A stretch of 64,000 nucleotides of DNA, taken from sequence record PP359696.1; one strand, written 5' to 3'. A program made the translations under genes and the position numbers. The DNA is from Escherichia phage Ge15. The notes beneath the pieces are model-generated. The model ran no database searches and had not been told where the DNA came from. It was given only the letters and a program-made list of their open reading frames with translations. Below, piece after piece: positions 2,685 through 24,658 of this stretch. The first letter of the stretch is position 1; every line of letters begins with the position of its first letter.

Positions 2685-3002
2685 ATGAAAACGTATAAAG
2701 AATTTATTGCAGAATCTGCCGCAGGACAACGTGTAGAAGGCGGTTATATTTGGATTGAAGAAGTTGAGCCACCTAGTCGTACTTCTACTGGTAAATGGAA
2801 AATTACTGTCGATGGTCCTGGCGGAAAACGCAGAACTTTAAAAGAAATTAATGGATATTATAGTGAAGCTCTTTCAGACGCGGGCACTTATATGATGCAA
2901 ATTATGATTAAAAATCCAGAAAATCGTTTTGCAGCTAGAGTTTTCCGCCGCATTGGAAATAAACTTTACGATGCATATTCTAAAAATTTTCCTAAAGCAT
3001 AA
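2685..3002 (+). CDS. ipII: Internal protein II (capsid-targeted, injected protein)
   Basis: N-terminal capsid targeting sequence MKTYKEFIAE; order denV-ipII-ipIII as in T4. Confidence 0.7.
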   Translation: MKTYKEFIAESAAGQRVEGGYIWIEEVEPPSRTSTGKWKITVDGPGGKRRTLKEINGYYSEALSDAGTYMMQIMIKNPENRFAARVFRRIGNKLYDAYSKNFPKA

Positions 3003-3018
3003 AAATTAAAGGAAACAT

Positions 3019-3492
3019 ATGAAAACATATCAAGAATTTATTACTGAAGCAGCTATTAATTCTCAAATTATTGCTGAATCTTTTACTGATCTTTTGAAAT
3101 TTAAAAAAGGTCAAAAAATCACTGCTGTATTGGATGATGGTACAGAAGTTGAGATGGATGTACAGGGATATAATTATGCAGTAGATGGAAAACTGTATAA
3201 TAAATCTCATGCTAAATTTGATTCATTTGACGACTTTGTTAATACAGTTGAAGATGAAAAAACTCGTAGATCCATTGCAACTGGTGATGCTAAGGTTCTT
3301 ATGGCACACGGCCATGAACGCATTCGCGCTAAGCAGAATAAAATGGGCGAAGATAATTTCGCATTAGTTGGTTATCAATCTGGTAAACAAACTTATGGTT
3401 ATCAGCGTACTGCTACCATGTATAACAAAAATGGTAAAATCGCTTTCGTGAATAGTAAAGGTTCTGTTCAGTACGTTAAATCGTTCAAATAA
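3019..3492 (+). CDS. ipIII: Internal protein III (capsid-targeted, injected protein)
   Basis: N-terminal capsid targeting sequence MKTYQEFITE; basic protein; synteny. Confidence 0.7.
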   Translation: MKTYQEFITEAAINSQIIAESFTDLLKFKKGQKITAVLDDGTEVEMDVQGYNYAVDGKLYNKSHAKFDSFDDFVNTVEDEKTRRSIATGDAKVLMAHGHERIRAKQNKMGEDNFALVGYQSGKQTYGYQRTATMYNKNGKIAFVNSKGSVQYVKSFK

Positions 3493-7032: not shown

Positions 7033-7508
7033 TTGTAAAATATATCAAGGGCGATATTGTCGCCCTCTTTCTTGAAGGTAATATTATTGCGCACGGGTGC
7101 AATTGTTTTCATACAATGGGCAGTGGTGTAGCTGGTCAATTAGCAAGAGCCTATCCCAAAATTTTAGAAATAGATAAGACCACAACTGAATATGGTTCGC
7201 GTGAAAAACTCGGTGATATGTCTATTGTTTTTAAACATAAACCTAATGGTTTTGGCATATGTTATAACTTGTATACGCAATACGAACCAGGTCCTAATCT
7301 TGATTATGGTGCTTTAGTAAACTGCATGATAGAATTAAATCTACAGGCAGAAACCCTTTTGTTTAAACCGGTAATTTACATTCCACGCATAGGTTGTGGT
7401 ATTGCTGGCGGCGATTGGGATAAGGTTTCTAAATTAATCGACATGTTTACTCCTGATATTGATTTAATAGTGGTGGATTATGAAAGTGCATTACCCGCAT
7501 CCGTTTGA
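7029..7508 (+). CDS. Macro-domain-like protein (putative ADP-ribose binding/processing)
   Basis: GDIVALF..NIIAHGCNCFHTMGSGVAGQLARAYP and IPRIGCGIAGG resemble macro-domain signature blocks. Confidence 0.5.
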   Translation: MIVKYIKGDIVALFLEGNIIAHGCNCFHTMGSGVAGQLARAYPKILEIDKTTTEYGSREKLGDMSIVFKHKPNGFGICYNLYTQYEPGPNLDYGALVNCMIELNLQAETLLFKPVIYIPRIGCGIAGGDWDKVSKLIDMFTPDIDLIVVDYESALPASV

Positions 7509-7692
7509 TCCTAAAAACAAAGCAGTAATTATTCGTCAATGGGAACGCATTTGCCGTACTAAATGTCCAATTAATAGTCCACATGATGTAGATAAAGACT
7601 ACATTGGAACATTCGTTGAATATACCTTTATTGATAAGAAAGGTCGTAAACAACATGTAGAAGAATATTGCTTAAAGGTTACATGGTTATGA
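7480..7692 (+). CDS. Hypothetical protein
   Basis: 70-aa ORF overlapping upstream gene end. Confidence 0.4.
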   Translation: MKVHYPHPFDPKNKAVIIRQWERICRTKCPINSPHDVDKDYIGTFVEYTFIDKKGRKQHVEEYCLKVTWL

Positions 7693-7713
7693 GCCAAACT
7701 AGTATTCTTAAAA

Positions 7714-7896
7714 ATGCCCACTGTGAAAAGTGTAAGTGGCCGGTTGTTTTTTGCTTTATGCAACGATGAAATGGCTTGTGATTTCGATTATTGGTGCTAT
7801 TGTTCTAATAAAGGATGCATCAATCATAAAGGTGAAGGATTTTATTCAGGATTTTACCCTTATCCTGATTTCGTTAAAGAAGGTAAACCAAAATGA
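7714..7896 (+). CDS. Hypothetical Cys-rich small protein
   Basis: 60 aa with CxxxxxxC...CxC...C pattern. Confidence 0.4.
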   Translation: MPTVKSVSGRLFFALCNDEMACDFDYWCYCSNKGCINHKGEGFYSGFYPYPDFVKEGKPK

Positions 7897-8069
7897 ATGA
7901 TGATTTAAAATATCAATTATTACGTGAACTTGATGTTTTGATTGAACTTTCTGCACAAAAAGGATTTATAATTGGATCGGGTCAAAAAGACCCCAACGGT
8001 CATTCAATCGTAGCGGTTATGAATCAGAAACGAGTCATTTTAAAACTTTTGGGGATTGACATACTGTGA
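7893..8069 (+). CDS. Hypothetical small protein
   Basis: 58-aa ORF not in track (below 60 aa); ATGA overlap with upstream stop; fills the gap to next gene. Confidence 0.3.
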   Translation: MNDDLKYQLLRELDVLIELSAQKGFIIGSGQKDPNGHSIVAVMNQKRVILKLLGIDIL

Positions 8070-8251
8070 GCCTAAGCAAAGAACAAAAAGATAAATTGTT
8101 TGAGCTTATCCATGAACTTCTAGATGAGCATGCAGAAGCAAACACCTTTTATGATGAATACGGCCCGCTATCTCCCGAACAGCAGGAAGAATTTGCTGAT
8201 CGGTTTGATAAGAAAGAAAATGAATTAATAGCTTATGTGAATACGCTTTAA
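8066..8251 (+). CDS. Hypothetical acidic protein
   Basis: 61 aa, GTG start overlapping upstream stop. Confidence 0.4.
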   Translation: MSLSKEQKDKLFELIHELLDEHAEANTFYDEYGPLSPEQQEEFADRFDKKENELIAYVNTL

Positions 8252-8260
8252 GAAGGTGAT

Positions 8261-8842
8261 ATGGCGAGTTTAATTTTTACTTATGCAGCAATGAATGCTG
8301 GAAAATCTGCTTCTCTTTTGACTGCTGCACATAATTATAAAGAACGTGGAATGAGTGTATTAGTTCTTAAGCCTGCTATTGATACTCGCGATTCTGTCTG
8401 TGAAGTTGTTTCTCGCATTGGAATTAAACAGGAAGCGAATATTATTACAGATGATATGGATATTTTCGAGTTCTATAAATGGGCTGAAGCACAAAAAGAT
8501 ATTCATTGCGTATTTGTAGATGAAGCTCAGTTTTTAAAAACTGAACAGGTGCACCAATTAAGCCGAATTGTTGATACATATAATGTTCCTGTTATGGCTT
8601 ATGGATTAAGGACTGATTTCGCTGGAAAATTGTTTGAAGGTTCTAAAGAACTTTTAGCGATTGCAGATAAACTTATTGAACTAAAGGCAGTTTGTCATTG
8701 CGGCAAAAAAGCGATTATGACAGCTCGATTAATGGAAGATGGAACACCAGTTAAAGAAGGTAATCAAATCTGTATTGGTGATGAAATTTATGTTTCTTTG
8801 TGCAGAAAACATTGGAATGAATTAACTAAAAAGCTTGGTTAG
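8261..8842 (+). CDS. tk: Thymidine kinase
   Basis: 193 aa; P-loop AMNAGKS and overall similarity to type II TK (E. coli Tdk-like); AAGGTG RBS. Confidence 0.93.
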   Translation: MASLIFTYAAMNAGKSASLLTAAHNYKERGMSVLVLKPAIDTRDSVCEVVSRIGIKQEANIITDDMDIFEFYKWAEAQKDIHCVFVDEAQFLKTEQVHQLSRIVDTYNVPVMAYGLRTDFAGKLFEGSKELLAIADKLIELKAVCHCGKKAIMTARLMEDGTPVKEGNQICIGDEIYVSLCRKHWNELTKKLG

Positions 8843-9109: not shown

Positions 9110-9403
9110 ATGGCCTTAAAAGCAACGGCACTATTTGCCATGCTAGGATTGTCATTTGTTTTATCTCCATCGATTGAAGCGAATGTCGATCCTCATTTTG
9201 ATAAATTTATGGAATCTGGTATTAGGCACGTTTATATGCTTTTTGAAAATAAAAGCGTAGAATCGTCTGAACAATTCTATAGTTTTATGAGAACGACCTA
9301 TAAAAATGACCCGTGCTCTTCTGATTTTGAATGTATAGAACGAGGCGCGGAGATGGCACAATCATACGCTAGAATTATGAACATTAAATTGGAGACTGAA
9401 TGA
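9110..9403 (+). CDS. rI: Lysis inhibition regulator RI (membrane-anchored periplasmic antiholin)
   Basis: 97 aa, N-terminal signal-anchor MALKATALFAMLGLSFVLSPSIEA as recalled for T4 RI; GGAGG RBS. Confidence 0.8.
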   Translation: MALKATALFAMLGLSFVLSPSIEANVDPHFDKFMESGIRHVYMLFENKSVESSEQFYSFMRTTYKNDPCSSDFECIERGAEMAQSYARIMNIKLETE

Positions 9404-11873: not shown

Positions 11874-12335
11874 ATGATTATTAATGAAAACTCTTGGCAC
11901 TATAAATTATTCAAATTGTTTAACGATGAATGGCAACGACCTAAGACATTATGCGCATATTTTTGGTCTATTGCCATTCCTACATTTTTCGTTTCTATTT
12001 TTGGATGTGTTATACTCGTAGGGCTAACAATTATTTGTGCAGAAAGCCTACAACGTTGGCTTATTTTCGGTAGTTTATGGACTCTTCTTCCATCGGCATT
12101 TATACTTGCACTTTTGGTTGTTTTACTTATTATCGGTTCATTTGTTATTCCTGCACATTTGCGTGAAAAATATAAAGATTATAAATGGAAAAAGGATTAT
12201 GCTTTACACGTAGAAAATATTGATAGGGCGTATAAAGGTTTACCTCCTATTCAACCCAAGAAATCGGTTATCGTTGAATTTTTAAAAGCTCGTAAAGCTA
12301 AAGTATGTCCTGTTATTGAATATAAGGCTGAATGA
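11874..12335 (+). CDS. Hypothetical integral membrane protein
   Basis: 153 aa with 3 predicted TM segments. Confidence 0.5.
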   Translation: MIINENSWHYKLFKLFNDEWQRPKTLCAYFWSIAIPTFFVSIFGCVILVGLTIICAESLQRWLIFGSLWTLLPSAFILALLVVLLIIGSFVIPAHLREKYKDYKWKKDYALHVENIDRAYKGLPPIQPKKSVIVEFLKARKAKVCPVIEYKAE

Positions 12336-13345
12336 TGAAAACAGTAATGAAAAGCTATTTTGGTAGTCATCTTTATGGAACTTCTACCCCAGAATCTGAT
12401 GTAGATTTTAAAGAAATCTTTGTTCCTCCTGCTCGTGATATTCTTATCGGAAATGTTAAAGAGCATATGAGTAAAAATACCAACAACACATCATCTAAAA
12501 ACACTAAAGATGATATTGACCACGAATTGTATAGTCTTAAGTATTTCTTTAAATTAGCAGCAGATGGTGAAACTGTAGCATTAGATATGCTTCACACTCC
12601 ACCTGAACTAGTGGTTAAATCTGATTTGCCTGATGTGTGGAAGTTTATTCAAGACAACCGTTCTCGTTTTTATACGACTAACATGAAATCCTATTTAGGA
12701 TATGTCCGCAAGCAAGCTTCTAAATACGGTGTCAAGGGTTCTCGTTTGGCTGCATTACGCGATGTATTGAAAGTAGTTAATCAAATCCCTGAGCAATGGG
12801 TTGATTACCAAGAAGACGGTTCCATTAAGCAGCGTCGTACTAAAGTTGAAGATATTAAGCATCGTCTTCCAGAAAACGAATTCTGTGAATGGGTGTTCCA
12901 TAATCATGAGAAAACAGGTCCACAAACGTTCTATACAGTGCTGGGTCGTAAATATCAGACAACGCTTTCTCTTATTGAGCTTAAGCAGTCACTGAACAAA
13001 TTAGATGCTGAATATGGTGAACGTGCTCGTAAAGCCGAAGCTAATGAAGGTATTGATTGGAAAGCACTAAGTCATGCTTGTCGTGGTGGACTTCAACTAT
13101 TGGAAATTTACAAAACTGGCGACTTGATTTATCCACTCCAAGATGCTCCATTTATTCTCGACGTGAAGTTGGGTAAACATCCATTTAAAACAGTTCAAGA
13201 GTTTTTGGAAGATGTGGTCGATCAAGTAGAAGCAGCATCTACTGAAGCTTCTAAGAACGGTATGCAGCAAAAAGTAGACATGGGTTTCTGGGATGACTTC
13301 CTTGAGAAGGTCTATCTTGAAAACCACCGAAGTTATTATAAATGA
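12332..13345 (+). CDS. Nucleotidyltransferase-fold protein (Pol-beta superfamily-like)
   Basis: N-terminal GSHLYGTSTPESDVDF matches GS-x(9-13)-DhD nucleotidyltransferase signature; followed by terminator. Confidence 0.5.
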   Translation: MMKTVMKSYFGSHLYGTSTPESDVDFKEIFVPPARDILIGNVKEHMSKNTNNTSSKNTKDDIDHELYSLKYFFKLAADGETVALDMLHTPPELVVKSDLPDVWKFIQDNRSRFYTTNMKSYLGYVRKQASKYGVKGSRLAALRDVLKVVNQIPEQWVDYQEDGSIKQRRTKVEDIKHRLPENEFCEWVFHNHEKTGPQTFYTVLGRKYQTTLSLIELKQSLNKLDAEYGERARKAEANEGIDWKALSHACRGGLQLLEIYKTGDLIYPLQDAPFILDVKLGKHPFKTVQEFLEDVVDQVEAASTEASKNGMQQKVDMGFWDDFLEKVYLENHRSYYK

Positions 13346-13347
13346 TA

Positions 13348-13372
13348 GGGAGCCTTCGGGCTCCCTTTTTTA
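13348..13372 (+). terminator. Intrinsic terminator
   Basis: GGGAGCC-TTCG-GGCTCCC + TTTTTT. Confidence 0.8.
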
Positions 13373-13393
13373 TTTCAAAAATTTTTCACAAAG

Positions 13394-13432
13394 TTGTTTA
13401 CAAGCATAAAGCTTTATGGTACTATACAACTA
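13394..13432 (+). promoter_or_regulatory. T4-type early promoter
   Basis: GTTGTTTAC ... TATGGTACTATACAACTATC; palindrome ATAAAGCTTTAT in spacer. Confidence 0.7.
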
Positions 13433-13463
13433 TCAAAACAAATGAGTAAATTGGAGATACAAA

Positions 13464-13664
13464 ATGACTACTTTGAATAAACGTTTCGGTAAAGCTAAAT
13501 CTGGGTGTGCAGCTGAACGTCGTTATGTTTTCGCTCAGTTAGAAGATGTAGAGTATCAGATTAATCAAGTTCACATTACTGGTATCGAGCCTATGTGTGG
13601 CCTTGAAGCTCTTCGTGAAGTTCGTGACGGGTATCGTCGTGACATCGAAGAAATGTCAAAATAA
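13464..13664 (+). CDS. Hypothetical small protein
   Basis: 66 aa; early promoter and GGAG RBS upstream. Confidence 0.45.
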   Translation: MTTLNKRFGKAKSGCAAERRYVFAQLEDVEYQINQVHITGIEPMCGLEALREVRDGYRRDIEEMSK

Positions 13665-13721
13665 GTATACAAACTGATAGGACTATGTTATAGTAGTCCT
13701 ATCAAATCAAAGGAGAATAAA

Positions 13722-14690
13722 ATGAAAACTGTAACTATCAATAAGGGTATCTACTTTGGCAAAGAAATCTCTGGAACTTTTGAGCTCTTAGGCGAATGGT
13801 TCCCAGATAATGCTCCGGTAGATGCACAAGGAGATGGTAAAGTTTTTGTTGAAATTGACGGTAAACGTCGCGGTGTTTGGGTTTACAAATCAGATATTTC
13901 ATATGATGGTGTAAAAGTTGAAGAAGTTAAAGAATCGTATGAAGATATGAAAACCCGCATTAATAAAAGATTTAATGTTATGGGAATGATGACGAATGGT
14001 ATTATTAATGGAAATATTCGTTCATTAATTATCTCTGGCGCAGCAGGTATTGGTAAAACGTATTCTTTAGATAAAGCTTTAAATAAAGCAAATGATATTG
14101 GATACATTGAATATAAAAGCATTAATGGTAAAATCTCTGGTATCGGTCTTTATGAACAGCTTTGGAATAATCGTGAAGAGAATTCTGTCCTTTTGATTGA
14201 TGATGTGGATGTTTTCTCTGATATGGACATTCTTAATCTTCTGAAAGCTGCTCTGGACACCGGAGAGACCCGCAAAGTCTGCTGGAGCACTGCATCTTCT
14301 TACTTAGAAGAAAAAGGCATTGAGCGTGAGTTTGAATTTAAAGGAACGATTGTTTTTATCACAAACGTTGACATTGACCGCGAATTAGACCGTGGTACTA
14401 AACTTGCTCCACATTTACAAGCATTAGTTTCCCGCTCGGTTTATTTAGATTTGGGTGTTCACACTAATGAAGAAATTATGGTCAGGGTTGAAGATGTTAT
14501 TCTTTCAACTGACATGATGCAAAAACGCGGTCTTTCTGATGAAGAAACTTATAAAGCATTATCATGGATGAAAGTCAATGTTAATCGTTTACGCAATGTT
14601 TCACTGCGTACTGCACTTTATCTTGCTGACTTTATTATGACCGACAAAAACGGTTGGGAAGAAATCGCTGAGGTTACTCTTCTGAAATAA
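13722..14690 (+). CDS. AAA+/P-loop ATPase
   Basis: Walker A GAAGIGKTY and Walker B VLLIDDVD; AAGGAG RBS. Confidence 0.6.
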   Translation: MKTVTINKGIYFGKEISGTFELLGEWFPDNAPVDAQGDGKVFVEIDGKRRGVWVYKSDISYDGVKVEEVKESYEDMKTRINKRFNVMGMMTNGIINGNIRSLIISGAAGIGKTYSLDKALNKANDIGYIEYKSINGKISGIGLYEQLWNNREENSVLLIDDVDVFSDMDILNLLKAALDTGETRKVCWSTASSYLEEKGIEREFEFKGTIVFITNVDIDRELDRGTKLAPHLQALVSRSVYLDLGVHTNEEIMVRVEDVILSTDMMQKRGLSDEETYKALSWMKVNVNRLRNVSLRTALYLADFIMTDKNGWEEIAEVTLLK

Positions 14691-14779
14691 TTCATAAGAG
14701 GCCTTCTATGACAAAAAGGCAGTTCAGAAATAGATTATATGGACTGCCATCAAAAAGATGACTAGAATTAAACTAGTAA

Positions 14780-15094
14780 ATGGAGGTAATGATGTTATAC
14801 TCAAAGGCTCGTGAAATTTACGAAACTAAAATTAAAGAAGCAGTATTTCAGTTCGCAACAACGATGCGATGGACAAATGACTGGGAGTATTCAAAAAATC
14901 ATAAGAAGCCCTTGGTGACAAGAAAGGCTCATATGTTAGTGTTAATAGACCGTGAGCAGATTAAAGCCCGAGAAGCCCTCCAGAATCATAAAAAGGCTGC
15001 CTTTGAATGGTTTATGGATAATACTGCTCCTGAGACTAAGAAAGCGGTCAGCGCATGGTTCAGTGGAAAAAATTGTGAAAGAAGTTTCTTTTAG
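14780..15094 (+). CDS. Hypothetical protein
   Basis: 104-aa ORF; GGAGG RBS favours start at 14789/14792. Confidence 0.45.
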   Translation: MEVMMLYSKAREIYETKIKEAVFQFATTMRWTNDWEYSKNHKKPLVTRKAHMLVLIDREQIKAREALQNHKKAAFEWFMDNTAPETKKAVSAWFSGKNCERSFF

Positions 15095-15132
15095 TTGTTT
15101 ACAAGACCGTTCCTCTGTGGTACTATACAACT
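15095..15132 (+). promoter_or_regulatory. T4-type early promoter
   Basis: GTTGTTTAC ... TGTGGTACTATACAACTATC. Confidence 0.7.
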
Positions 15133-15154
15133 ATCAACTACGGAGGAACACAAA

Positions 15155-15682
15155 ATGAACGCTAAAGATATTTTCAACCTGGTAAATTACAACGATGGTA
15201 AATTTAAATCAGAAGCACAAAGCAAGTTCTTTAATGACATCTCAATCGGAGGTGAAATCACGGTTGATGGAGGACAAATTTACAAATCCCGTTGGAATTG
15301 GATCGTTATTATTGATGAGATTGGTATCGTAGAAATTTATAAAAATACGAATAAAAATCGTACATTACACTGGTCTCGTGATACTAACGAACAGTACAAA
15401 AAGGATAAAGCATCTAAATTATCTCGTGTAACTCAAGAAGATATTGAGTTCATCAAGAAAGATATTTTGATGTATGATAACTTAATTGCTGAAGAGCAAG
15501 CTGTTATTGATAAATTTGACGAGATTAAAGCTTCTCGTGAAATTCCTGATTTTATGAAAGAATCAGTAAATGAACGATACACTCTCATTTCAGAGCGTAT
15601 TGAAACTTACAAAAAGCAAAGAGCTGAACGCCAGAATACTCTTCGGAAGTTTGAAGAACGGTTAAAGACGGTACTCGCATAA
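15155..15682 (+). CDS. Hypothetical protein
   Basis: Start at ATG 15155 after GGAGG RBS, downstream of early promoter (track ORF 15095 begins inside promoter). Confidence 0.5.
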   Translation: MNAKDIFNLVNYNDGKFKSEAQSKFFNDISIGGEITVDGGQIYKSRWNWIVIIDEIGIVEIYKNTNKNRTLHWSRDTNEQYKKDKASKLSRVTQEDIEFIKKDILMYDNLIAEEQAVIDKFDEIKASREIPDFMKESVNERYTLISERIETYKKQRAERQNTLRKFEERLKTVLA

Positions 15683-15685
15683 CCG

Positions 15686-15715
15686 CTTTATACCAAGGAT
15701 GGTATAATGGTTCTA
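15686..15715 (+). promoter_or_regulatory. Possible MotA-dependent middle promoter
   Basis: CGCTTTA (Mot-box-like, one mismatch) + 12-nt spacer + TATAAT. Confidence 0.35.
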
Positions 15716-15737
15716 AGCCCTTTTAATTGAGATTATT

Positions 15738-16139
15738 ATGAAACAGTTGATAATTAAAAGATTGAATTTATTGATATGTTGTTTATGTATAGTAATTGCA
15801 TATGGTTATTACGTAATTAATGATTATATGCATTATAAAGATTATGATGTTACTGTAGTTAATACCATTACAGGAACACAAGGAAAAGGGTCTAGTTTAT
15901 CGTTTATTGCTGTATATGAACTCAAAGACGGTTATAGATTTAGTGAATATATTTCCCCAGAGATGTATTCTTCAATAGAAAAAGGTGATAATATTACTGT
16001 AAGTTTACGTCCTTTCGACGTAAAACAGACATGGTTTGATAATATTGTTTGGTTCTTTGGAATGGCATTAGTTCAGTCTATATGTGGTACTTATATAGTT
16101 TGTTCAATCTTATTCCGCGTAATTAATAAAATTGAGTGA
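15738..16139 (+). CDS. Hypothetical membrane protein
   Basis: 133 aa with N- and C-terminal TM segments. Confidence 0.5.
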   Translation: MKQLIIKRLNLLICCLCIVIAYGYYVINDYMHYKDYDVTVVNTITGTQGKGSSLSFIAVYELKDGYRFSEYISPEMYSSIEKGDNITVSLRPFDVKQTWFDNIVWFFGMALVQSICGTYIVCSILFRVINKIE

Positions 16140-16146
16140 GGAAAAT

Positions 16147-17034
16147 ATGTCAGTAGTAATTAATAATGTCAATGCAGTAATTAAATCTTTAGTTAATAAA
16201 AAATTGAATGAATGGACTGTACTTCGTCGTGGAGAGCCAGATAAATTTTTTCATAGATTTAACCCAACTTTGGATTTGAATGTTATTGACAGAGATGTTC
16301 ATGCTGAAATTTTAGATAAATTTAAAGTTGATATTGGGTTTGGATTAGATAAACATTTACAACGAACAAACGGGTCTGGAATGGGTTTATCTAATCGCAT
16401 TATGAAAGCCCTTAATAAAATTGGAGCATTGTCTCGTATTAACGCGAGTGAAATCCTTCGTAATTATAATAAAGGATATGACCTTTACGGTCGACTAATG
16501 CCGAAATTATCATTTGACCAAATGATCGCAGATTTGTGGGAAAATCAACGACGATTATTAGCATTAGGCGCTAGATTAGCTAAAGGTCTAGATAAACAAA
16601 TGATTTTTAAGACCAATAATACAGAAGACCTTAAATGCTTTAAATTTAGTATTCGCGGCGATGATTATTACGTCAGAGCTCGCTCTACAGATTATGTTAA
16701 TATGGGGCATCATCTCTGTTTAGCTTTTGAAGTTTTAAAAGAAGCCGGAACATTAGAATATGTGTCTGGTGCTAAATGCCCGATTGGTTCAAGTTGTATT
16801 TTAATTTATCGCCCGGATGAATCCAGTTTAACTAAATTGCCTACAAAACCTGTACCAGTTCGTAGTAATGAAAAATATTCCGAGCAAATTGATTATTTTA
16901 ATAAGCAAATTGAAGAGCTGAATATTTCTATTCAACAGTATGACGATGAAATTTTCAGACTATCTGGATTGAGTAGTAAAGCTAAATCTGAGCGTGAAAA
17001 ATTAATTAAAATTGTTGATTTACTTAAATCTTAA
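16147..17034 (+). CDS. Hypothetical protein, member of coiled-coil-tailed paralog array
   Basis: ATG 16147 after GAGG; C-terminal approx 45-aa heptad/coiled-coil tail. Confidence 0.5.
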   Translation: MSVVINNVNAVIKSLVNKKLNEWTVLRRGEPDKFFHRFNPTLDLNVIDRDVHAEILDKFKVDIGFGLDKHLQRTNGSGMGLSNRIMKALNKIGALSRINASEILRNYNKGYDLYGRLMPKLSFDQMIADLWENQRRLLALGARLAKGLDKQMIFKTNNTEDLKCFKFSIRGDDYYVRARSTDYVNMGHHLCLAFEVLKEAGTLEYVSGAKCPIGSSCILIYRPDESSLTKLPTKPVPVRSNEKYSEQIDYFNKQIEELNISIQQYDDEIFRLSGLSSKAKSEREKLIKIVDLLKS

Positions 17035-17042
17035 GGAACACT

Positions 17043-18068
17043 ATGAAAACTCGTTCTCAAATTGAAGATATGGTTCGTAATGCCAGCTATACCCGTAATG
17101 TTATGACATTTTTGTGCCAAAATAATTTAGACCCTGATAAAGTTAATCGTGATATTCACTTTAAGTATATGAATAGCAGTGAATGGTTACGTCATTTTAA
17201 TGAAGCAGGGTATATTACTCAAATGACTGCTCGTGAGCAGCTCACCGATTTCTGTAAAACTATTGATTATAAAAATCCTCTATTTGTTCAAGGCGTTGGT
17301 CAAAGTAAGGTCGATTTATCATCTGGATTTTTCAATCCGAATCATTATCGTATTGAATGGAGATTTATTGCTCTGTTCCGTAGACAATTAAAGCAAATTT
17401 TGTCTACTGCTAGTCGATTAAAAGGCTCTGATATTAACTTAAAGAACCTGAAATTTGATGGTTATACTCTTCAGATGGAAGTAAGACCATTAAAAGAAAA
17501 TAATAGAACTGCACGAATTAGCTTTAAACCTAATACAAAAAATTCTCTTTCAATTTGTGAATGCCTTAAATCACAGTTGACAGAAGCATTTAAGTATATG
17601 GATGTTGTTGCTGCTGTTCAATCTAAGATTTTACCTCGTTTTGAACGATTTAAGTTAGATACAACATCATATGAACTTGATATGATCGTTTCATTTAAAT
17701 ACGATTTTTTGAGAAAGGACGAAGTCCCGCAAGAGAAAAAGCAGGAAGTACAAGATAACTTAAATTTAAATTTATCCAATTACTTATCAAACGATCCTAA
17801 ATTTTGGATGTATAGTTCAGGTAATAAAGATGCATGGAAATTTAATAAAGTGAATTTTCTTCCTATTGAAAATCCGAGTCTTAAACCTGTTGAAAAATGG
17901 CATGCAGATGCAATTGAGAAGTCTATCAAGGCAGTAGATGATGAACTCGTTAAAGCAACTAATGAAGTGCTAGAAGCTGAAAAGATGTTGGAAAAAGCTC
18001 AAGAAAAAGTCAAAAATCTTACGAAGCAACGTTCTAAACTGAACAATGCACTAAATGCACTGAACTAG
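17043..18068 (+). CDS. Hypothetical protein, member of coiled-coil-tailed paralog array
   Basis: 341 aa, N-terminus MKTR..., C-terminal coiled-coil tail ending ALNALN. Confidence 0.5.
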   Translation: MKTRSQIEDMVRNASYTRNVMTFLCQNNLDPDKVNRDIHFKYMNSSEWLRHFNEAGYITQMTAREQLTDFCKTIDYKNPLFVQGVGQSKVDLSSGFFNPNHYRIEWRFIALFRRQLKQILSTASRLKGSDINLKNLKFDGYTLQMEVRPLKENNRTARISFKPNTKNSLSICECLKSQLTEAFKYMDVVAAVQSKILPRFERFKLDTTSYELDMIVSFKYDFLRKDEVPQEKKQEVQDNLNLNLSNYLSNDPKFWMYSSGNKDAWKFNKVNFLPIENPSLKPVEKWHADAIEKSIKAVDDELVKATNEVLEAEKMLEKAQEKVKNLTKQRSKLNNALNALN

Positions 18069-18100
18069 TTTACATTGCCACAAGGATGTGGTATAATGTT
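18064..18100 (+). promoter_or_regulatory. T4-type early promoter
   Basis: TAGTTTAC ... TGTGGTATAAT. Confidence 0.7.
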
Positions 18101-18125
18101 CTTACTTTCTACTGAGGAGATTATT

Positions 18126-19127
18126 ATGACTCGTAACGAATATATCAAATCATTCAATAGCGTTATTGATGATAAAGCTATACCGATGTTTGGTCAAAAT
18201 ATCATTCTTTCTATTATCAATCAATGGCTCAATAGTGTTGATGCAAGTATTGTTTCTTCTGCTAAATTTATTCATGAAATTCGTAAAATTTCTAGCCGTG
18301 TAGATAAAGATGTTATCAAGAAAACTTTTAAAGAGTCTCGTCTTCTTTCATATTTGGTTAATCGGGATATTCTTGGTAATTTTGGGAAAGAAATTAAACG
18401 AACCAAAGATGTAGTAGGATATAATTGGTTCGGTGATGTTAATTCTTATCATCTTAATAATAAAGAAGACCCTGAGAATATTTTTACTCGTCGTTGGATT
18501 AGTAATTTCAGACTTTTCAAAGGACAAATTCTAAAATCAGCTTCTAAATTATGTTATGGCGATTATCGTCAAATTCATCCTTTGGCTTCTGATATGATTA
18601 TCGTAAAAGAATATGAGCTTGATGAAAATAAAGTAGCTATTTTTGTGAATTATGGATTTTTTACACCAAACGCTAACCAAAAGAATATTAATAAATTTTT
18701 CTCAATTGCTAGCACTATAACTCGTCAGTTAGAGACTGCATTACTTTGTATGGAAACAGTAGAAAATATTCATACATATCCTTTTAAGAATATATGCGGA
18801 TGGGAAGGATATAAAATTATAATTAGCCTTCGTGAAGTGAAACGTACGTACTCACCGACTGATAAAGAAATTTACCAACAAAAATGTGATGAAATTGTGA
18901 ATACTCCTAAAGAAGAAACTACCCTTGAAGAACTAATGGAATGTCTTGACGATTCGCCTGAACCGATAGAAATTCGTCCAGAAGTTATTGCACTAGAAAA
19001 AGCTTATAAAGAAGTTCTAGAAATTTCTAATAAAGCGCAGAAAGAATATGAGAAGGCTAAAAGGATTTGGGAAGAATCTGTTAATCGCCTTGATCGTTTG
19101 GAACAAGCTTTACAGTTAATTAAGTAA
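18126..19127 (+). CDS. Hypothetical protein, member of coiled-coil-tailed paralog array
   Basis: Start ATG 18126 after GAGGAG RBS and early promoter; C-terminal coiled coil ending ALQLIK. Confidence 0.5.
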   Translation: MTRNEYIKSFNSVIDDKAIPMFGQNIILSIINQWLNSVDASIVSSAKFIHEIRKISSRVDKDVIKKTFKESRLLSYLVNRDILGNFGKEIKRTKDVVGYNWFGDVNSYHLNNKEDPENIFTRRWISNFRLFKGQILKSASKLCYGDYRQIHPLASDMIIVKEYELDENKVAIFVNYGFFTPNANQKNINKFFSIASTITRQLETALLCMETVENIHTYPFKNICGWEGYKIIISLREVKRTYSPTDKEIYQQKCDEIVNTPKEETTLEELMECLDDSPEPIEIRPEVIALEKAYKEVLEISNKAQKEYEKAKRIWEESVNRLDRLEQALQLIK

Positions 19128-19179
19128 TTTAAAGCCAAGGATGGCTCGGAGTATAAATCATTAACCAAGTGAGAAGAAC

Positions 19180-20109
19180 ATGAAAACTCGTAAACATTAT
19201 ATTGATTATTTTGACAGTCTTATTATTAAACACCGTAATTATCAGATCGGACACAGAGCAGTAATCAATAATATTCTTCGTGATTTCCTTCAATATGTTG
19301 GCCAGGAAAATCATATCTGTAAAGATACTCAAAACGCTTATTCTCATTCGTTGGGCAATTTGCTTCAATGGTTTAAACGTTCTCGTATGTTATCTTCTAC
19401 TGTAGCTCGCGATAACATTAAAAACTTTATGAAGCCGAGCTTTATTAAATCTGAGACATCTATAACTGATTTGGTTGAATTTACTATTGTTAACGATGTT
19501 AAAAAGACCCATTTGGCTGATTGGTTATCTACCATTCCTGAAACTAAATTTGCTGATAAATTTGCTTGTCAATTCAATGACCAAGTGAATATGCTTTTTA
19601 AGCATGCTCGCAAACTATTTACCGCGGGCGATGACCGTACAAATACAGTTCATGTTAAGGACTGGGTTATTGCTGATGAAGTAACACACAAGCCAGGTGG
19701 TTCATCAGTATTAATTAATATCCAGGTTCCTTATTATTACTCACGTAATCTCGGCACCATGAACTCTAGAGAAATTAATAAGCACAACAAAACTATTCGT
19801 TCGTTATCTTATAAACTCCGCATGATGTTAAAAATCATGGACGTAGTAGAAATGTATGACGAAACCGAAGATAATGGTTCAATGTTATACAGTTCACGCA
19901 TTTTAATTAAACTGAAGAACCCTAATACATATAAGACAGTTGTAAAAGAGCCTAAAGTAGAAAAGATTGATAACTTGAGCGAAGAACGTGAATACCTCAA
20001 ATCTCGACTAGTTGAAGTTGAAGCTCAGATTGCCGAACACACTAAATTGTTAAAAGCTCTTAATGCAAAAGCAAATGGTTTACGTAATGCTATTGAGGTA
20101 TTGAAATGA
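19180..20109 (+). CDS. Hypothetical protein, member of coiled-coil-tailed paralog array
   Basis: 309 aa, N-terminus MKTRKHYIDYF, C-terminal coiled coil ending AIEVLK. Confidence 0.5.
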   Translation: MKTRKHYIDYFDSLIIKHRNYQIGHRAVINNILRDFLQYVGQENHICKDTQNAYSHSLGNLLQWFKRSRMLSSTVARDNIKNFMKPSFIKSETSITDLVEFTIVNDVKKTHLADWLSTIPETKFADKFACQFNDQVNMLFKHARKLFTAGDDRTNTVHVKDWVIADEVTHKPGGSSVLINIQVPYYYSRNLGTMNSREINKHNKTIRSLSYKLRMMLKIMDVVEMYDETEDNGSMLYSSRILIKLKNPNTYKTVVKEPKVEKIDNLSEEREYLKSRLVEVEAQIAEHTKLLKALNAKANGLRNAIEVLK

Positions 20110-20495
20110 AAAAGCGTCTATTAGAAGATATTGCAGCTTCAAGTAATTCCAGTCTAATTAAAATTATTATGGCTGGTGAAGAAGACGATCTGGAAATGCG
20201 CGGAAAGATTCATGGTTGTGATGATTTAGATTTTAAACCTCCAGCCTGGGATGCTATTATGGTTATGGTTGAACGTCGCGAAAGGGCTTCTAAAAACGTT
20301 CCTAATTGTCCTGAATGCGGTACTGAACAAGTTCAATTGATTAACTGGCGTAAACCGGAACTTGAATATAAATGCCGTCATTGCAAACATAAATTTAGTA
20401 AGCATGCTCCGGAAATGGTTAAATTACCTGACTCTACTGAGTTCTTTAAAGAACTTGCGAGTGTTCAACCAATGCCTAATAATATTTTGGATTAA
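20106..20495 (+). CDS. Zinc-ribbon protein
   Basis: CPECG...(17 aa)...CRHCKHKF four-Cys ribbon; ATGA overlap. Confidence 0.5.
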
Positions 20496-20496
20496 A

Positions 20497-20739
20497 ATGA
20501 CAAAGCGTAAAGAATATATGGAGACTGCTGAAAAGGCAGTCCGTGAATTAGCAATAGCGTATTATAATGAACATGGTAAATTTCCTGATAGATATAGCGT
20601 GCTTAAATCTGCTTTAACTCGTTCATATAAAAATATGCTATCAGAAGTAAGTGATATTATATACAAACATAAAGAACAAACAGGTCAAAGTCTTGATTAC
20701 GACGAGACTTTTAAACAAGTACTAGGAATTAAGGAATAA
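20497..20739 (+). CDS. Hypothetical protein
   Basis: 80 aa from ATG 20497 (track ORF 20362 frame). Confidence 0.45.
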
Positions 20740-20740
20740 T

Positions 20741-21004
20741 ATGTTTAAAGTATATGGTTATGATAGCAACATCCATAAATGTGTGTATTGCGATAATGCA
20801 AAACGTCTCTTGACTGTGAAGAAACAGCCATTTGAATTTATCAACATTATGCCGGAAAAAGGTGTTTTTGATGATGAGAAAATCGCTGAGCTTCTGACGA
20901 AACTAGGTCGTGATACTCAAATTGGTTTGACAATGCCACAAGTATTTGCTCCTGATGGAAGTCATATTGGTGGATTTGACCAACTGCGAGAATATTTTAA
21001 ATGA
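20741..21004 (+). CDS. nrdC: Phage thioredoxin (glutaredoxin-like)
   Basis: 87 aa, MFKVYGYDSNIHKCVYCDNAKRLL with CVYC active site, as recalled for T4 NrdC. Confidence 0.93.
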   Translation: MFKVYGYDSNIHKCVYCDNAKRLLTVKKQPFEFINIMPEKGVFDDEKIAELLTKLGRDTQIGLTMPQVFAPDGSHIGGFDQLREYFK

Positions 21005-21216
21005 TGCTCGAAGGAAATGACTATATTCATGATTACCGCGGAAGCGCGGTATATGTAGGTGATGAAGTTGCAGTTTATTATGGGTATGGAACTTTGATGA
21101 CAGCAAAGGTTATTCAAATTAAAAATAATCGTGCTAAACTCGAAGTTTATTATTCTAATGGTGAAAAGTCTATTTCTAAGTGGAAATACGGCGATTGTAT
21201 GGTTAAATTGGGGTAA
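21001..21216 (+). CDS. Hypothetical protein
   Basis: 71-aa ORF overlapping nrdC stop. Confidence 0.45.
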   Translation: MMLEGNDYIHDYRGSAVYVGDEVAVYYGYGTLMTAKVIQIKNNRAKLEVYYSNGEKSISKWKYGDCMVKLG

Positions 21217-22370: not shown

Positions 22371-22844
22371 ATGTTATTGACTGGCAAATTATACAAAGAA
22401 GAAAAACAGAAATTTTATGATGCACAAAACGGTAAATGCTTAATTTGCCAACGAGAACTAAATCCTGATGTTCAAGCTAATCATCTTGATCATGACCATG
22501 AATTAAATGGACCAAAAGCAGGAAAGGTGCGTGGATTGCTTTGTAATCTCTGCAATGCCGCAGAAGGTCAAATGAAACATAAATTTAATCGTTCTGGCTT
22601 AAAGGGGCAAGGTGTTGATTATCTTGAATGGTTAGAAAATTTACTTACTTATTTAAAATCCGATTACACCCAAAATAATATTCATCCTAACTTTGTTGGA
22701 GATAAATCAAAGGAATTTTCTCGTTTAGGAAAAGAGGAAATGATGGCTGAGATGCTTCAAAGAGGATTTGAATATAATGAATCTGACACTAAAACACAAT
22801 TAATAGCTTCATTCAAGAAGCAGCTTAGAAAGAGTTTAAAATGA
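22371..22844 (+). CDS. 49: Endonuclease VII (Holliday junction resolvase)
   Basis: 157 aa; MLLTGKLYKEEKQKFYDAQNGKCLICQREL... with Zn-binding Cys cluster and HLDHDH motif as in T4 endo VII. Confidence 0.95.
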   Translation: MLLTGKLYKEEKQKFYDAQNGKCLICQRELNPDVQANHLDHDHELNGPKAGKVRGLLCNLCNAAEGQMKHKFNRSGLKGQGVDYLEWLENLLTYLKSDYTQNNIHPNFVGDKSKEFSRLGKEEMMAEMLQRGFEYNESDTKTQLIASFKKQLRKSLK

Positions 22845-24658
22845 CAATTGAAAAAGAAATTGAAGGATTGATTCATAAAACTAATAAAGACCTTTTAAAC
22901 GAGAATGCTAATAAAGATTCTCGTGTTTTTCCAACTCAACGGGACCTTATGGCTGGTATTGTGTCTAAACACATTGCCAAAAATATGGTCCCGTCTTTTA
23001 TTATGAAAGCGCATGAAAGCGGAATTATTCATTTCCATGATATTGATTATTCCCCTGCTCTTCCATTTACTAATTGCTGTTTAGTAGATTTAAAAGGAAT
23101 GCTTGAGAACGGATTTAAGCTTGGTAATGCACAGATTGAAACTCCTAAATCAATTGGCGTTGCTACTGCAATTATGGCACAAATTACTGCACAGGTTGCT
23201 TCCCATCAATACGGCGGAACGACTTTTGCTAATGTAGATAAAGTACTTTCTCCTTATGTTAAACGCACCTATGCAAAACATATTGAGGATGCAGAAAAAT
23301 GGCAAATCGCTGATGCGTTGAATTATGCTCAATCTAAAACAGAAAAAGATGTATACGATGCATTCCAAGCTTATGAATATGAAGTAAATACTCTCTTTAG
23401 TTCAAACGGACAAACACCTTTTGTAACAATTACATTTGGTACAGGAACTGACTGGACTGAACGAATGATTCAGAAAGCAATTCTGAAAAATCGTATTAAA
23501 GGTCTCGGTCGTGATGGGATAACTCCTATTTTCCCTAAGCTTGTTATGTTCGTTGAAGAAGGTGTTAATCTTTATAAAGACGATCCGAACTACGATATTA
23601 AGCAGCTTGCTCTAGAGTGCGCAAGCAAAAGAATGTATCCTGATATTATTTCAGCTAAGAACAATAAAGCTATCACCGGCTCATCTATTCCTGTTTCTCC
23701 AATGGGTTGCCGTAGTTTCTTGAGCGTATGGAAAGATTCGACTGGTAATGAAATTCTTGATGGACGTAATAATCTCGGTGTTGTAACACTGAATCTTCCT
23801 CGTATCGCATTAGATTCTTATATTGGAACACAGTTCAATGAACAGAAATTTATCGAATTATTTAATGAACGAATGGATTTATGTTTTGAAGCTTTGATGT
23901 GTAGAATTAGTTCCTTAAAAGGAGTTAAAGCTACTGTTGCTCCTATTCTTTACCAAGAAGGTGCATTCGGGGTTCGTCTTAAACCTGATGACGACATAAT
24001 TGAGTTATTTAAAAACGGTAGAAGTTCAGTGTCTTTAGGATACATTGGTATCCACGAATTGAATATTCTTGTCGGACGTGATATTGGACAAGAAATTTTA
24101 ACTAAAATGAATGCTCTTCTTAAACAATGGACTGAAAGAACTGGGTTTGCTTTTAGCTTGTATTCTACACCTGCTGAAAACTTGTGTTATCGCTTCTGTA
24201 AACTCGATACAGAAAAATATGGAAGTGTAAAAGATGTTACAGATAAAGGCTGGTACACTAATAGTTTCCATGTTTCAGTAGAAGAAAATATTACTCCGTT
24301 TGAAAAGATTTCTCGTGAAGCGCCATATCATTTCATTGCGACAGGTGGTCACATTTCTTATGTTGAACTTCCTGATATGAAAAATAACTTAAAGGGTCTT
24401 GAGGCCGTATGGGATTATGCTGCACAACATTTAGATTATTTTGGTGTTAATATGCCAGTAGATAAATGTTTTACATGTGGAAGTACTCATGAAATGACTC
24501 CTACTGAAAACGGATTTGTTTGTTCTATTTGTGGAGAAACTGATCCTAAAAAGATGAACACAATAAGAAGAACATGTGGTTATTTGGGAAATCCGAACGA
24601 ACGCGGATTTAATCTCGGTAAAAATAAAGAAATCATGCATAGGGTTAAACACCAATGA
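22841..24658 (+). CDS. nrdD: Anaerobic ribonucleoside-triphosphate reductase (class III RNR)
   Basis: 605 aa, C-terminal Zn/glycyl-radical region CFTCGSTHE...CSICGE...RRTCGYLGNP; continuous ORF (no intron). Confidence 0.95.
   Translation: MTIEKEIEGLIHKTNKDLLNENANKDSRVFPTQRDLMAGIVSKHIAKNMVPSFIMKAHESGIIHFHDIDYSPALPFTNCCLVDLKGMLENGFKLGNAQIETPKSIGVATAIMAQITAQVASHQYGGTTFANVDKVLSPYVKRTYAKHIEDAEKWQIADALNYAQSKTEKDVYDAFQAYEYEVNTLFSSNGQTPFVTITFGTGTDWTERMIQKAILKNRIKGLGRDGITPIFPKLVMFVEEGVNLYKDDPNYDIKQLALECASKRMYPDIISAKNNKAITGSSIPVSPMGCRSFLSVWKDSTGNEILDGRNNLGVVTLNLPRIALDSYIGTQFNEQKFIELFNERMDLCFEALMCRISSLKGVKATVAPILYQEGAFGVRLKPDDDIIELFKNGRSSVSLGYIGIHELNILVGRDIGQEILTKMNALLKQWTERTGFAFSLYSTPAENLCYRFCKLDTEKYGSVKDVTDKGWYTNSFHVSVEENITPFEKISREAPYHFIATGGHISYVELPDMKNNLKGLEAVWDYAAQHLDYFGVNMPVDKCFTCGSTHEMTPTENGFVCSICGETDPKKMNTIRRTCGYLGNPNERGFNLGKNKEIMHRVKHQ

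Follow-up and report, generated by a model that had tools for sequence, protein, structure and literature searches.

The closest described relative of the genes studied here is nrdC.5 of phage T4. A T4 deletion mutant does not grow on ECOR17 or on MG1655 carrying dsr1, a defence gene with a SIR2 domain, and T4 nrdC.5 supplied on a plasmid restores growth and plating of the deletion mutant on Dsr1 cells (Srikant, Guegler and Laub, eLife 2022, PMC9391042). Dsr1 is a SIR2-type NADase defence that NrdC.5 counters; the paper gives no mechanism and does not treat paralogy (PMC9391042). The sensor of Dsr1, which is common to Avs7, is triggered by a phage major capsid protein (2026 Nature paper, PMC13581612). 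Our literature searches on nrdC.3 to nrdC.11, DUF7235 and Dsr1 returned the nrdC.5 study as the single functional paper, and the literature searched made no mention of a relationship among nrdC.3-nrdC.6. Here, we analysed the tandem array of four open reading frames (ORFs) at positions 16147-20109 of a 64,000-nucleotide stretch of Escherichia phage Ge15 (record PP359696.1; the whole stretch is called the window). We named the ORFs A, B, C and D. B is the orthologue of T4 NrdC.5, and A, C and D are its distant paralogues with the same architecture. It was already known that the genes are T4 ORFs and that one of them has a published function. The new finding is that the four form one superfamily confined to T4-like phages, with a signature of its own, a variable copy number and discrete allele classes.

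Two other systems resemble the array. DSAD1 of phage SPbeta does the same type of job as NrdC.5. It neutralises the SIR2 NADase DSR2, whose sensor recognises a late structural protein, and in published structures it acts on DSR2 by direct binding. The internal proteins of T4 (IPI, IPII and IPIII) and the hypervariable T-even loci are, like the array, non-essential, highly polymorphic and cassette-like, and they lie in plastic regions. Some internal proteins counter host defences, IPIII being a known anti-defence member (PMC9391042), and there is a weak N-terminal resemblance (MKT...) to the NrdC proteins. However, the internal proteins are small, have no sequence relationship to the NrdC proteins and are packaged by means of a cleavable targeting sequence, whereas NrdC.3-6 have 295-341 residues, lack a cleavage motif and lie in an early-type unit.

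Common ancestry of the four proteins

The source of the window is a Tequatrovirus and a close relative of T4. The 4.9 kb around the array has matches in 657 phage records and shares 97.6% identity with known Tequatroviruses, among them vB_Eco_Geo and slur03. The + strand of the window is the direction of early transcription, and the gene order is the same as on the T4 reference map. An earlier note, made from the letters of the sequence, had described four consecutive ORFs of 295-341 amino acids and had read them as paralogues. The ORFs are indeed present, each with a ribosome-binding site:

16147-17034, + strand: ORF A, 295 amino acids, T4 nrdC.6 orthologue, 95.8% identical to T4 NrdC.6
17043-18068, + strand: ORF B, 341 amino acids, T4 nrdC.5 orthologue, 93.9% identical to T4 NrdC.5
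18126-19127, + strand: ORF C, 333 amino acids, T4 nrdC.4 orthologue, 95.2% identical to T4 NrdC.4
19180-20109, + strand: ORF D, 309 amino acids, T4 nrdC.3 orthologue, 59.7% identical to T4 NrdC.3

The D allele belongs to a different class from that of T4 and is 94-97% identical to D of other Tequatroviruses. Pfam and PHROGs keep A, B and C/D as separate families, all labelled as of unknown function. A matched phrog_2257 (E 7.5e-152), and its homologues carry the precomputed Pfam annotation PF26899. B, which lies between the nrdC.6 and nrdC.4 orthologues as T4 NrdC.5 does, matched Pfam PF23882 (DUF7235) with 405 bits over residues 1-341 (gathering cut-off, 30). C matched phrog_1435 (E 1.4e-166; precomputed Pfam annotation of homologues, PF26897), and D matched the same PHROG (E 2.6e-115). 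In the Pfam scan, no match to PF23882 was found in A, C or D, so that B alone is assigned to DUF7235, the family of T4 NrdC.5. The families phrog_1435, PF26897 and PF26899 are uncharacterised T4-like families, and the link between A, B and C/D is made by the present analysis.

Pairwise alignment supported the proposed paralogy for C and D (BLASTP E 4e-8) and not for the other five pairs (E > 0.3). Since C-D was the only significant pair, BLASTP is too weak to decide four-way paralogy. An initial comparison of family profiles gave E values of 0.007-0.09 for A-B, A-C, A-D and B-D. Body-only profiles, from which the C-terminal tails are excluded, gave in a first round 4e-14 for C-D, 6.7e-5 for B-C, 4.9e-4 for A-B and 5e-3 for A-C, with mutually consistent residue ranges. 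We then enriched the clade profiles with divergent proteins from the superfamily search before the body-only hhalign comparison. The E values were 4e-14 for C-D (probability 98%), 2.6e-7 for A-C (93%), 1.9e-6 for A-B (90%) and 5.4e-5 for B-C (67%). The profile alignments were collinear, and the residue mappings agreed across pairs. In addition, bridging proteins matched several body-only profiles, among them P0226 (A 3e-11, B 4e-7, C 6e-6), P0233 (B 7e-13; more weakly A and C, 4e-6, and D, 1e-5) and P0239 (B 2e-6, C 4e-7). Tail-less family profiles therefore connect all four proteins, with D joined through C. In a control with 700 shuffles per profile, the lowest E values ranged from 5e-6 to 2e-4, showing that the HMMER E values are somewhat optimistic.

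Two blocks of the body recur in the four proteins:

16399-16476, + strand: body motif 1 in A, residues 85-110, IMKALNKIGALSRINASEILRNYNKG
17184-17258 (B), 18315-18389 (C) and 19360-19434 (D), + strand: equivalents of body motif 1, in the same columns of the multi-family alignment
16543-16617, + strand: body motif 2 in A, residues 133-157, NQRRLLALGARLAKGLDKQMIFKTN, the A-x-R/K-L-x-x-G-D motif closing a long helix
17379-17447 (B), 18510-18572 (C) and 19576-19641 (D), + strand: equivalents of body motif 2, aligned across families

Motif 1 is a helix pair of the form F/L-K-x-x-x-h-L-S-x-x-x-A-x-x-x-L-x-N-F/Y-G and lies inside the A-B and A-C matches of hhalign. Motif 2 is the most conserved block inside the A and B families, and gp94 of Yersinia phage fHe-Yen9-01 matches the A, C and D profiles at this segment. 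The two body motifs and the terminal coiled coil define the family signature. Across the superfamily alignment only L83, A205, L332 and K333 are near-invariant, and conserved catalytic residues are lacking. At the DNA level, the only repeat within the array is a 19-nt stretch common to B and D, which spans the ribosome-binding site and the start codon. Given the lack of any DNA repeat beyond these 19 nt, the duplications are old, and nothing points to recent duplication or gene conversion.

The AlphaFold2 models of A and B, with a predicted local distance difference test score (pLDDT) of 79 and 57, respectively, agree in the order of their elements. N-terminal helices are followed by a long helix and then by a helix flanked by two beta-hairpins, and after a disordered linker the chain ends in a terminal helix. 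Foldseek against the viral predicted structures of BFVD found four entries at E <= 1e-3 for both models, and these are the top four of B. They are proteins of 300-375 amino acids from Enterobacter phage IME523, Pectobacterium phage PM2, Klebsiella phage Mineola and Erwinia phage Cronus. The IME523 protein is linked by sequence to P0228 (E 2e-9), which in turn matched the C body profile (7e-10). The predicted build common to all four proteins is a helical N-terminal part with motif 1, the motif-2 helix, a small hairpin/helix/hairpin unit with beta-hairpins, a disordered linker and the heptad helix. Taken together, the body-only profiles, the bridging proteins and the structural neighbours common to the A and B models lead us to conclude that A-D are ancient, strongly diverged tandem paralogues, in agreement with the earlier note.

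In PDB sequence searches with the A and B families nothing real was found, and no solved structure resembles the superfamily. The superfamily profile (alignment A3) matched de novo designed helical-repeat proteins (8cwy, 8cws and 5cwb) at E 2e-12. This match runs through profile positions 6-80, which represent the N-terminus of the NrdC.4 family; we judged it presumably compositional, but it is unusually strong.

We considered whether true paralogy is limited to C and D, which A and B would resemble merely through helical low-complexity composition and similar length. The null BLASTP result for five of the six pairs, the initial profile values for A-B, A-C, A-D and B-D, the separation of A, B and C/D in Pfam and PHROGs and the optimism of the HMMER E values are all consistent with this explanation. 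Nevertheless, we regard it as improbable. The enriched tail-less profiles relate A to both B and C in collinear, mutually consistent segments, the bridging proteins match several families in the body, and the models of A and B agree in element order and have four significant BFVD neighbours in common. Furthermore, the superfamily profile is specific. Among 1.84 billion representative proteins, it found 30 at E <= 1e-3, which indicates that it does not attract generic helical proteins. Fourteen of these 30 are new divergent proteins of approximately 280-365 amino acids, most of which aligned over the greater part of their length. The profile found no further match within the 64-kb window, and in six related loci it likewise found only family proteins.

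Many deposited T4-like genomes label all ORFs at the nrdC.2-nrdC.7 positions (the homologues of 15700-20600) as 'thioredoxin'. This label, the nrdC names and the nearness of nrdC, nrdD and nrdG would place the four proteins in nucleotide or redox metabolism, a role that we consider extremely improbable. Pfam gives no thioredoxin or glutaredoxin match for any of the four, and none contains CxxC, which rules out a thioredoxin identity at the level of sequence. The predicted architecture of helices, two beta-hairpins and a coiled coil is not a thioredoxin fold either. Given that the T4 reference calls these genes hypothetical proteins, the label looks like the propagation of a gene name, and we flag this widespread annotation as wrong.

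C-terminal heptad tails

Each of the four proteins ends in a heptad helix of 43-59 residues, and all share the terminal motif L-x-x-A/I-L/I/V-x-x-L-K/N. We applied a crude heptad scan, in which the top window of hydrophobic a/d positions was compared with 200 shuffles:

16870-17028, + strand: heptad tail of A, residues 242-294, containing the best heptad window (p = 0.000); AlphaFold2 helices 242-271 and 277-294
17886-18062, + strand: heptad tail of B, residues 282-340, with heptad windows 285-314 (p = 0.005); one predicted helix of 59 residues
18996-19124, + strand: heptad tail of C, residues 291-333; heptad judged by eye
19966-20106, + strand: heptad tail of D, residues 263-309, with the best heptad window from residue 279 (p = 0.045)

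Hydrophobic a/d periodicity over at least four heptads was thus found by the scan in the C-terminal 45-60 residues of A, B and D and by eye in C, long helices are predicted in the A and B models, and the C-terminal heptad segments described in the earlier note are real in this sense. The tail helix of B (282-340) reaches a pLDDT of 91 in the AlphaFold2 model. The scan placed the top window of C at residue 185, in the body and not in the tail. The a/d positions of its tail, assigned by eye, are V, L, Y, V, S, A, Y, A, W, S, L, L, L and I, so that several core positions are polar.

The array had been described as a conserved tail fused to divergent bodies. Within each orthologue family this is correct, as evidenced by comparing divergent members: identity is 56-74% in the tails and 37-60% in the bodies. 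For the allele classes of D the values are 74% and 60%, respectively. Between paralogues it is not correct. No tail-only profile comparison between paralogues was significant (E 0.004-0.1), and the detectable homology is in the body; we rejected the view that the tail is a homologous module common to the paralogues. The matches of the superfamily profile to GCN4 coiled-coil adaptors in the PDB fall on its tail part; these we also judged compositional. We infer that the heptad tail is most simply an oligomerisation element that gives multivalency.

Tails are also found without their bodies. ACG-C40 (NC_019399), Manna (PP987310) and Pinarejo (PP925831) carry tail-only remnants with 94-98% identity. 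What is kept comprises residues 238-309 of D, 251-333 of C and 249-295 of A, always the 3' tail-coding ends.

Distribution, copy number and alleles

All named superfamily members are from T4-like phages. The few homologues under bacterial names are 85-94% identical to phage genes, and most of them are on contigs of approximately 165-170 kb. The locus is syntenic across genera, between nrdC.11/nrdC.10 on one side and nrdC, pin and gene 49 on the other. The copies found there number one in Kanagawavirus IME523 (Enterobacter phage) and in Marfavirus F48 (Klebsiella phage), three in Dhakavirus JS10 (in the order A-like, B-like, C-like) and four in this phage and in T4. In a second Tequatrovirus type three copies were also found: this type lacks C, its A' and B' share 33% and approximately 24% identity with A and B, respectively, and its D is 79% identical. 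Hence, the family is present only in T4-like phages, within which the copy number grew from one to four. A-like genes are carried by 741 of 50,697 phage records, B by 581, C by 553 and D by 653.

The D alleles fall into three identity classes: at least 90% (357 records), 74-80% (approximately 190 records) and approximately 60% (100 records). The T4 and T2 alleles belong to the class of approximately 60%. In T4-type phages, A, B and C are near-identical to those of the window but the synonymous divergence (dS) of D is approximately 1.2, which indicates that the D allele was replaced by recombination. In close comparisons, the ratio of nonsynonymous to synonymous divergence (dN/dS) was 0.06-0.14 for A, 0.14-0.25 for B, 0.20-0.30 for C and 0.10-0.31 for D, compared with 0-0.13 for the neighbours nrdC.10, nrdC.8, nrdC, gene 49 and nrdD. 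The gene-wide ratios are raised but below 1 and therefore do not establish positive selection.

These data bear on a further explanation, in which the tails would hold the four proteins together as parts of one hetero-oligomeric complex with a single early host-takeover task. Such a complex would account for the presence in all four of a C-terminal heptad helix with the same terminal motif, for the tail being the best-conserved part among the divergent orthologues of each family, and for the adjacency of the genes on one strand. However, the copy number at the locus varies from one to four across T4-like genera, and alleles are exchanged independently, as seen in T4, where A, B and C are near-identical and D is 60% identical. 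No significant similarity links the tail profile of one family with that of another. Plasmid-borne nrdC.5 alone rescued growth on Dsr1 cells, in a deletion mutant that may have retained some of the paralogues. We therefore consider a hetero-oligomeric complex unlikely.

Natural rearrangements of the array include a B/D chimera, an internally duplicated A and a split C. The chimera, P0161 on a 167-kb contig, joins the middle of NrdC.5 in frame to the C-terminal 170 residues of NrdC.3 (...WKFNKVN joined to MLFKHARKL...); the fusion removes the 3' end of nrdC.5, the whole of nrdC.4 and the 5' end of nrdC.3. P0001 (Shigella phage Sf25 gp220) is an NrdC.6 homologue of 378 amino acids with an internal tandem duplication of approximately 83 residues, which runs from the beta region through the linker into the start of the tail. 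In the viral contig L003 (8916-9948), nrdC.4 is split into two ORFs of 193 and 158 amino acids, and in T2 (AP018813 46269-47226) the nrdC.4 match is in two pieces. This suggests that both are pseudogenes. Yersinia phage fHe-Yen9-01 (Tegunavirus, L010) has two very divergent members, gp94 (292 amino acids) and gp111 (313 amino acids). They are at 7459-8337 and 14382-15323, approximately 6 kb apart and not in tandem.

Predicted early expression and proposed anti-defence role

A Shine-Dalgarno-like sequence is present 6-8 nt upstream of all four ATGs: GAGGAAAAT for A, AAGGAACACT for B, GAGGAGATTATT for C and GAGAAGAAC for D, that of D being the weaker one. The ribosome-binding site of C is GAGGAG, 7 nt upstream of its ATG. 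An internal early promoter had also been noticed, and a strong match to the sigma-70 consensus is found in the array:

18069-18097, + strand: sigma-70 promoter match before ORF C, with -35 TTTACA (gTTTACA), a 17-nt spacer, -10 TATAAT and an upstream TG

With 11 of 12 positions, it is the top sigma-70 match across 13000-21200 (approximately 8 kb). A transcript start at approximately 18104 would exclude the in-frame ATG at 18096 and so argues for the form of C with 333 amino acids over the form with 343 amino acids that begins there. The early orientation of the array and this early-type promoter match before nrdC.4 suggest that the array is transcribed early.

The N-termini are MKTR in B, MTR in C and MKTR in D, which agrees with the three M(K)TR starts listed in the earlier note. 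With Y-I following in C and D, these starts recall the capsid-targeting sequence MKTYQEFI(A/T)E, and the proteins might be packaged, injected with the DNA and active against host defences immediately, as IPI and IPIII are, the M(K)TR..Y-I N-terminus serving as a variant targeting sequence. That internal proteins are known anti-defence factors (IPIII, PMC9391042), and that the late-promoter-like TATAAATC lies 20 nt upstream of the D start, are in line with this scenario. By contrast, A has no such N-terminal motif at all, and our reading of the sequence found no (L/I)-x-E cleavage motif after the putative signal in B, C and D. The orientation of the genes and the early-type promoter match place them in an early transcription unit, and nrdC.5 works when it is supplied in the cell from a plasmid. 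The well-studied inventory of T4 head proteins is not known to include NrdC proteins of 35-40 kDa. We consider packaging very unlikely.

Two side observations concern the same signals. The sequence TATAAATC is at 19153-19160, agrees with the T4 late promoter consensus TATAAATA at 7 of 8 positions and follows directly on a small GC hairpin (19135-19149), upstream of nrdC.3. The window also contains two internal-protein genes, at 2685-3002 and 3019-3492, with the capsid-targeting N-termini MKTYKEFIAE and MKTYQEFITE.

In Pfam, NCBIfam and PADLOC scans, no enzyme signature was found in A-D, and beyond DUF7235 for B there was only sub-threshold coiled-coil noise. None of the PADLOC defence-protein models matched the four proteins, apart from a 12-bit coiled-coil match of the C tail to BrxC. 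Given the few invariant residues and the lack of an enzyme signature, we read the proteins as binders rather than enzymes. With moderate confidence, we propose that NrdC.3-6 are early, coiled-coil, non-enzymatic binders of host defence proteins, NrdC.5 acting by direct binding and A, C and D acting against other defences or variants. All four would bind stoichiometrically. The coiled-coil tail would oligomerise the proteins and make them multivalent, and the paralogues and allele classes would each be adapted to a defence protein or variant of their own. Early synthesis would mean that the NrdC proteins are present before the capsid protein can trigger sensors such as that of Dsr1. The host immune proteins would thus be blocked before late, sensor-triggering phage proteins (for Dsr1, the major capsid protein) appear.

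The earlier note had guessed at target-binding or anti-defence functions. For B this agrees with the published activity of T4 nrdC.5 against Dsr1 (PMC9391042). For NrdC.6, NrdC.4 and NrdC.3, paralogy, accessory-gene behaviour and allele diversity suggest that they may have anti-defence roles as well. Homology to a characterised T4 protein, which that note had counted as evidence against its view, exists for B alone, and it confirms the functional guess rather than contradicting it. Its interpretation is largely supported.

Several points weigh against the proposed role. First, the anti-defence role of NrdC.6, NrdC.4 and NrdC.3 would be an extrapolation from one paralogue, NrdC.5, and direct binding by NrdC.5 is assumed by analogy. 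Second, the d positions of the B tail are alanine-rich, so the tail helix could pack against a partner instead of oligomerising. Third, A-D and B-D are weak in direct profile comparison (E 0.002-0.01), which is why D joins the family through C; the B model is poor, and the structural evidence covers the A and B models only. Finally, dN/dS is well below 1, and that of A (0.06-0.14) is only slightly above that of the neighbours. Within Tequatrovirus the cores are 95-100% conserved, and the variation is in the N-terminal 50 residues and the linker. A conserved core activity would explain this pattern just as well as target diversification.

A bolder version, which we hold only tentatively, is that the superfamily comprises dedicated immune-sensor blockers of T4-like phages, with the tail providing multivalency and each paralogue or allele class directed against a different one of the many host defence proteins that contain Dsr1/Avs7-type sensor domains or other NADase effectors. 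If this is true, T4 carries three more anti-defence genes. Although no lytic phage has been studied better than T4, the majority of its accessory early genes are without a known function. Common ancestry with the anti-Dsr1 gene nrdC.5 turns nrdC.6, nrdC.4 and nrdC.3 into specific anti-defence candidates, and the discrete allele classes, three for nrdC.3, could be matched to the defence repertoires of hosts to find the targets.

The array lies in the interval between rI and nrdC, where the earlier note had placed it:

9110-9403: rI, at one flank of the interval
15738-16139: nrdC.7 (membrane protein), directly upstream of the array
20741-21004: nrdC, at the other flank of the interval

Further upstream are nrdC.11 (12332-13345; nucleotidyltransferase in the T4 annotation) and nrdC.10 (13722-14690), for which AAA and STAND-NTPase models scored below threshold. 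The two genes show good conservation (dN/dS 0-0.12) and are syntenic with the array in distant genera. The ORF that follows the array (20106-20495) overlaps the stop codon of D, occupies the nrdC.2 position and encodes 129 amino acids with a zinc-ribbon CxxC...CxxC. It is as mosaic as D, with 52-97% identity across related phages. In the window, nrdD (22841-24658) is a single uninterrupted ORF of 605 amino acids, whereas T4 nrdD consists of two pieces joined around the I-TevII intron, and mobC is also nearby in T4.

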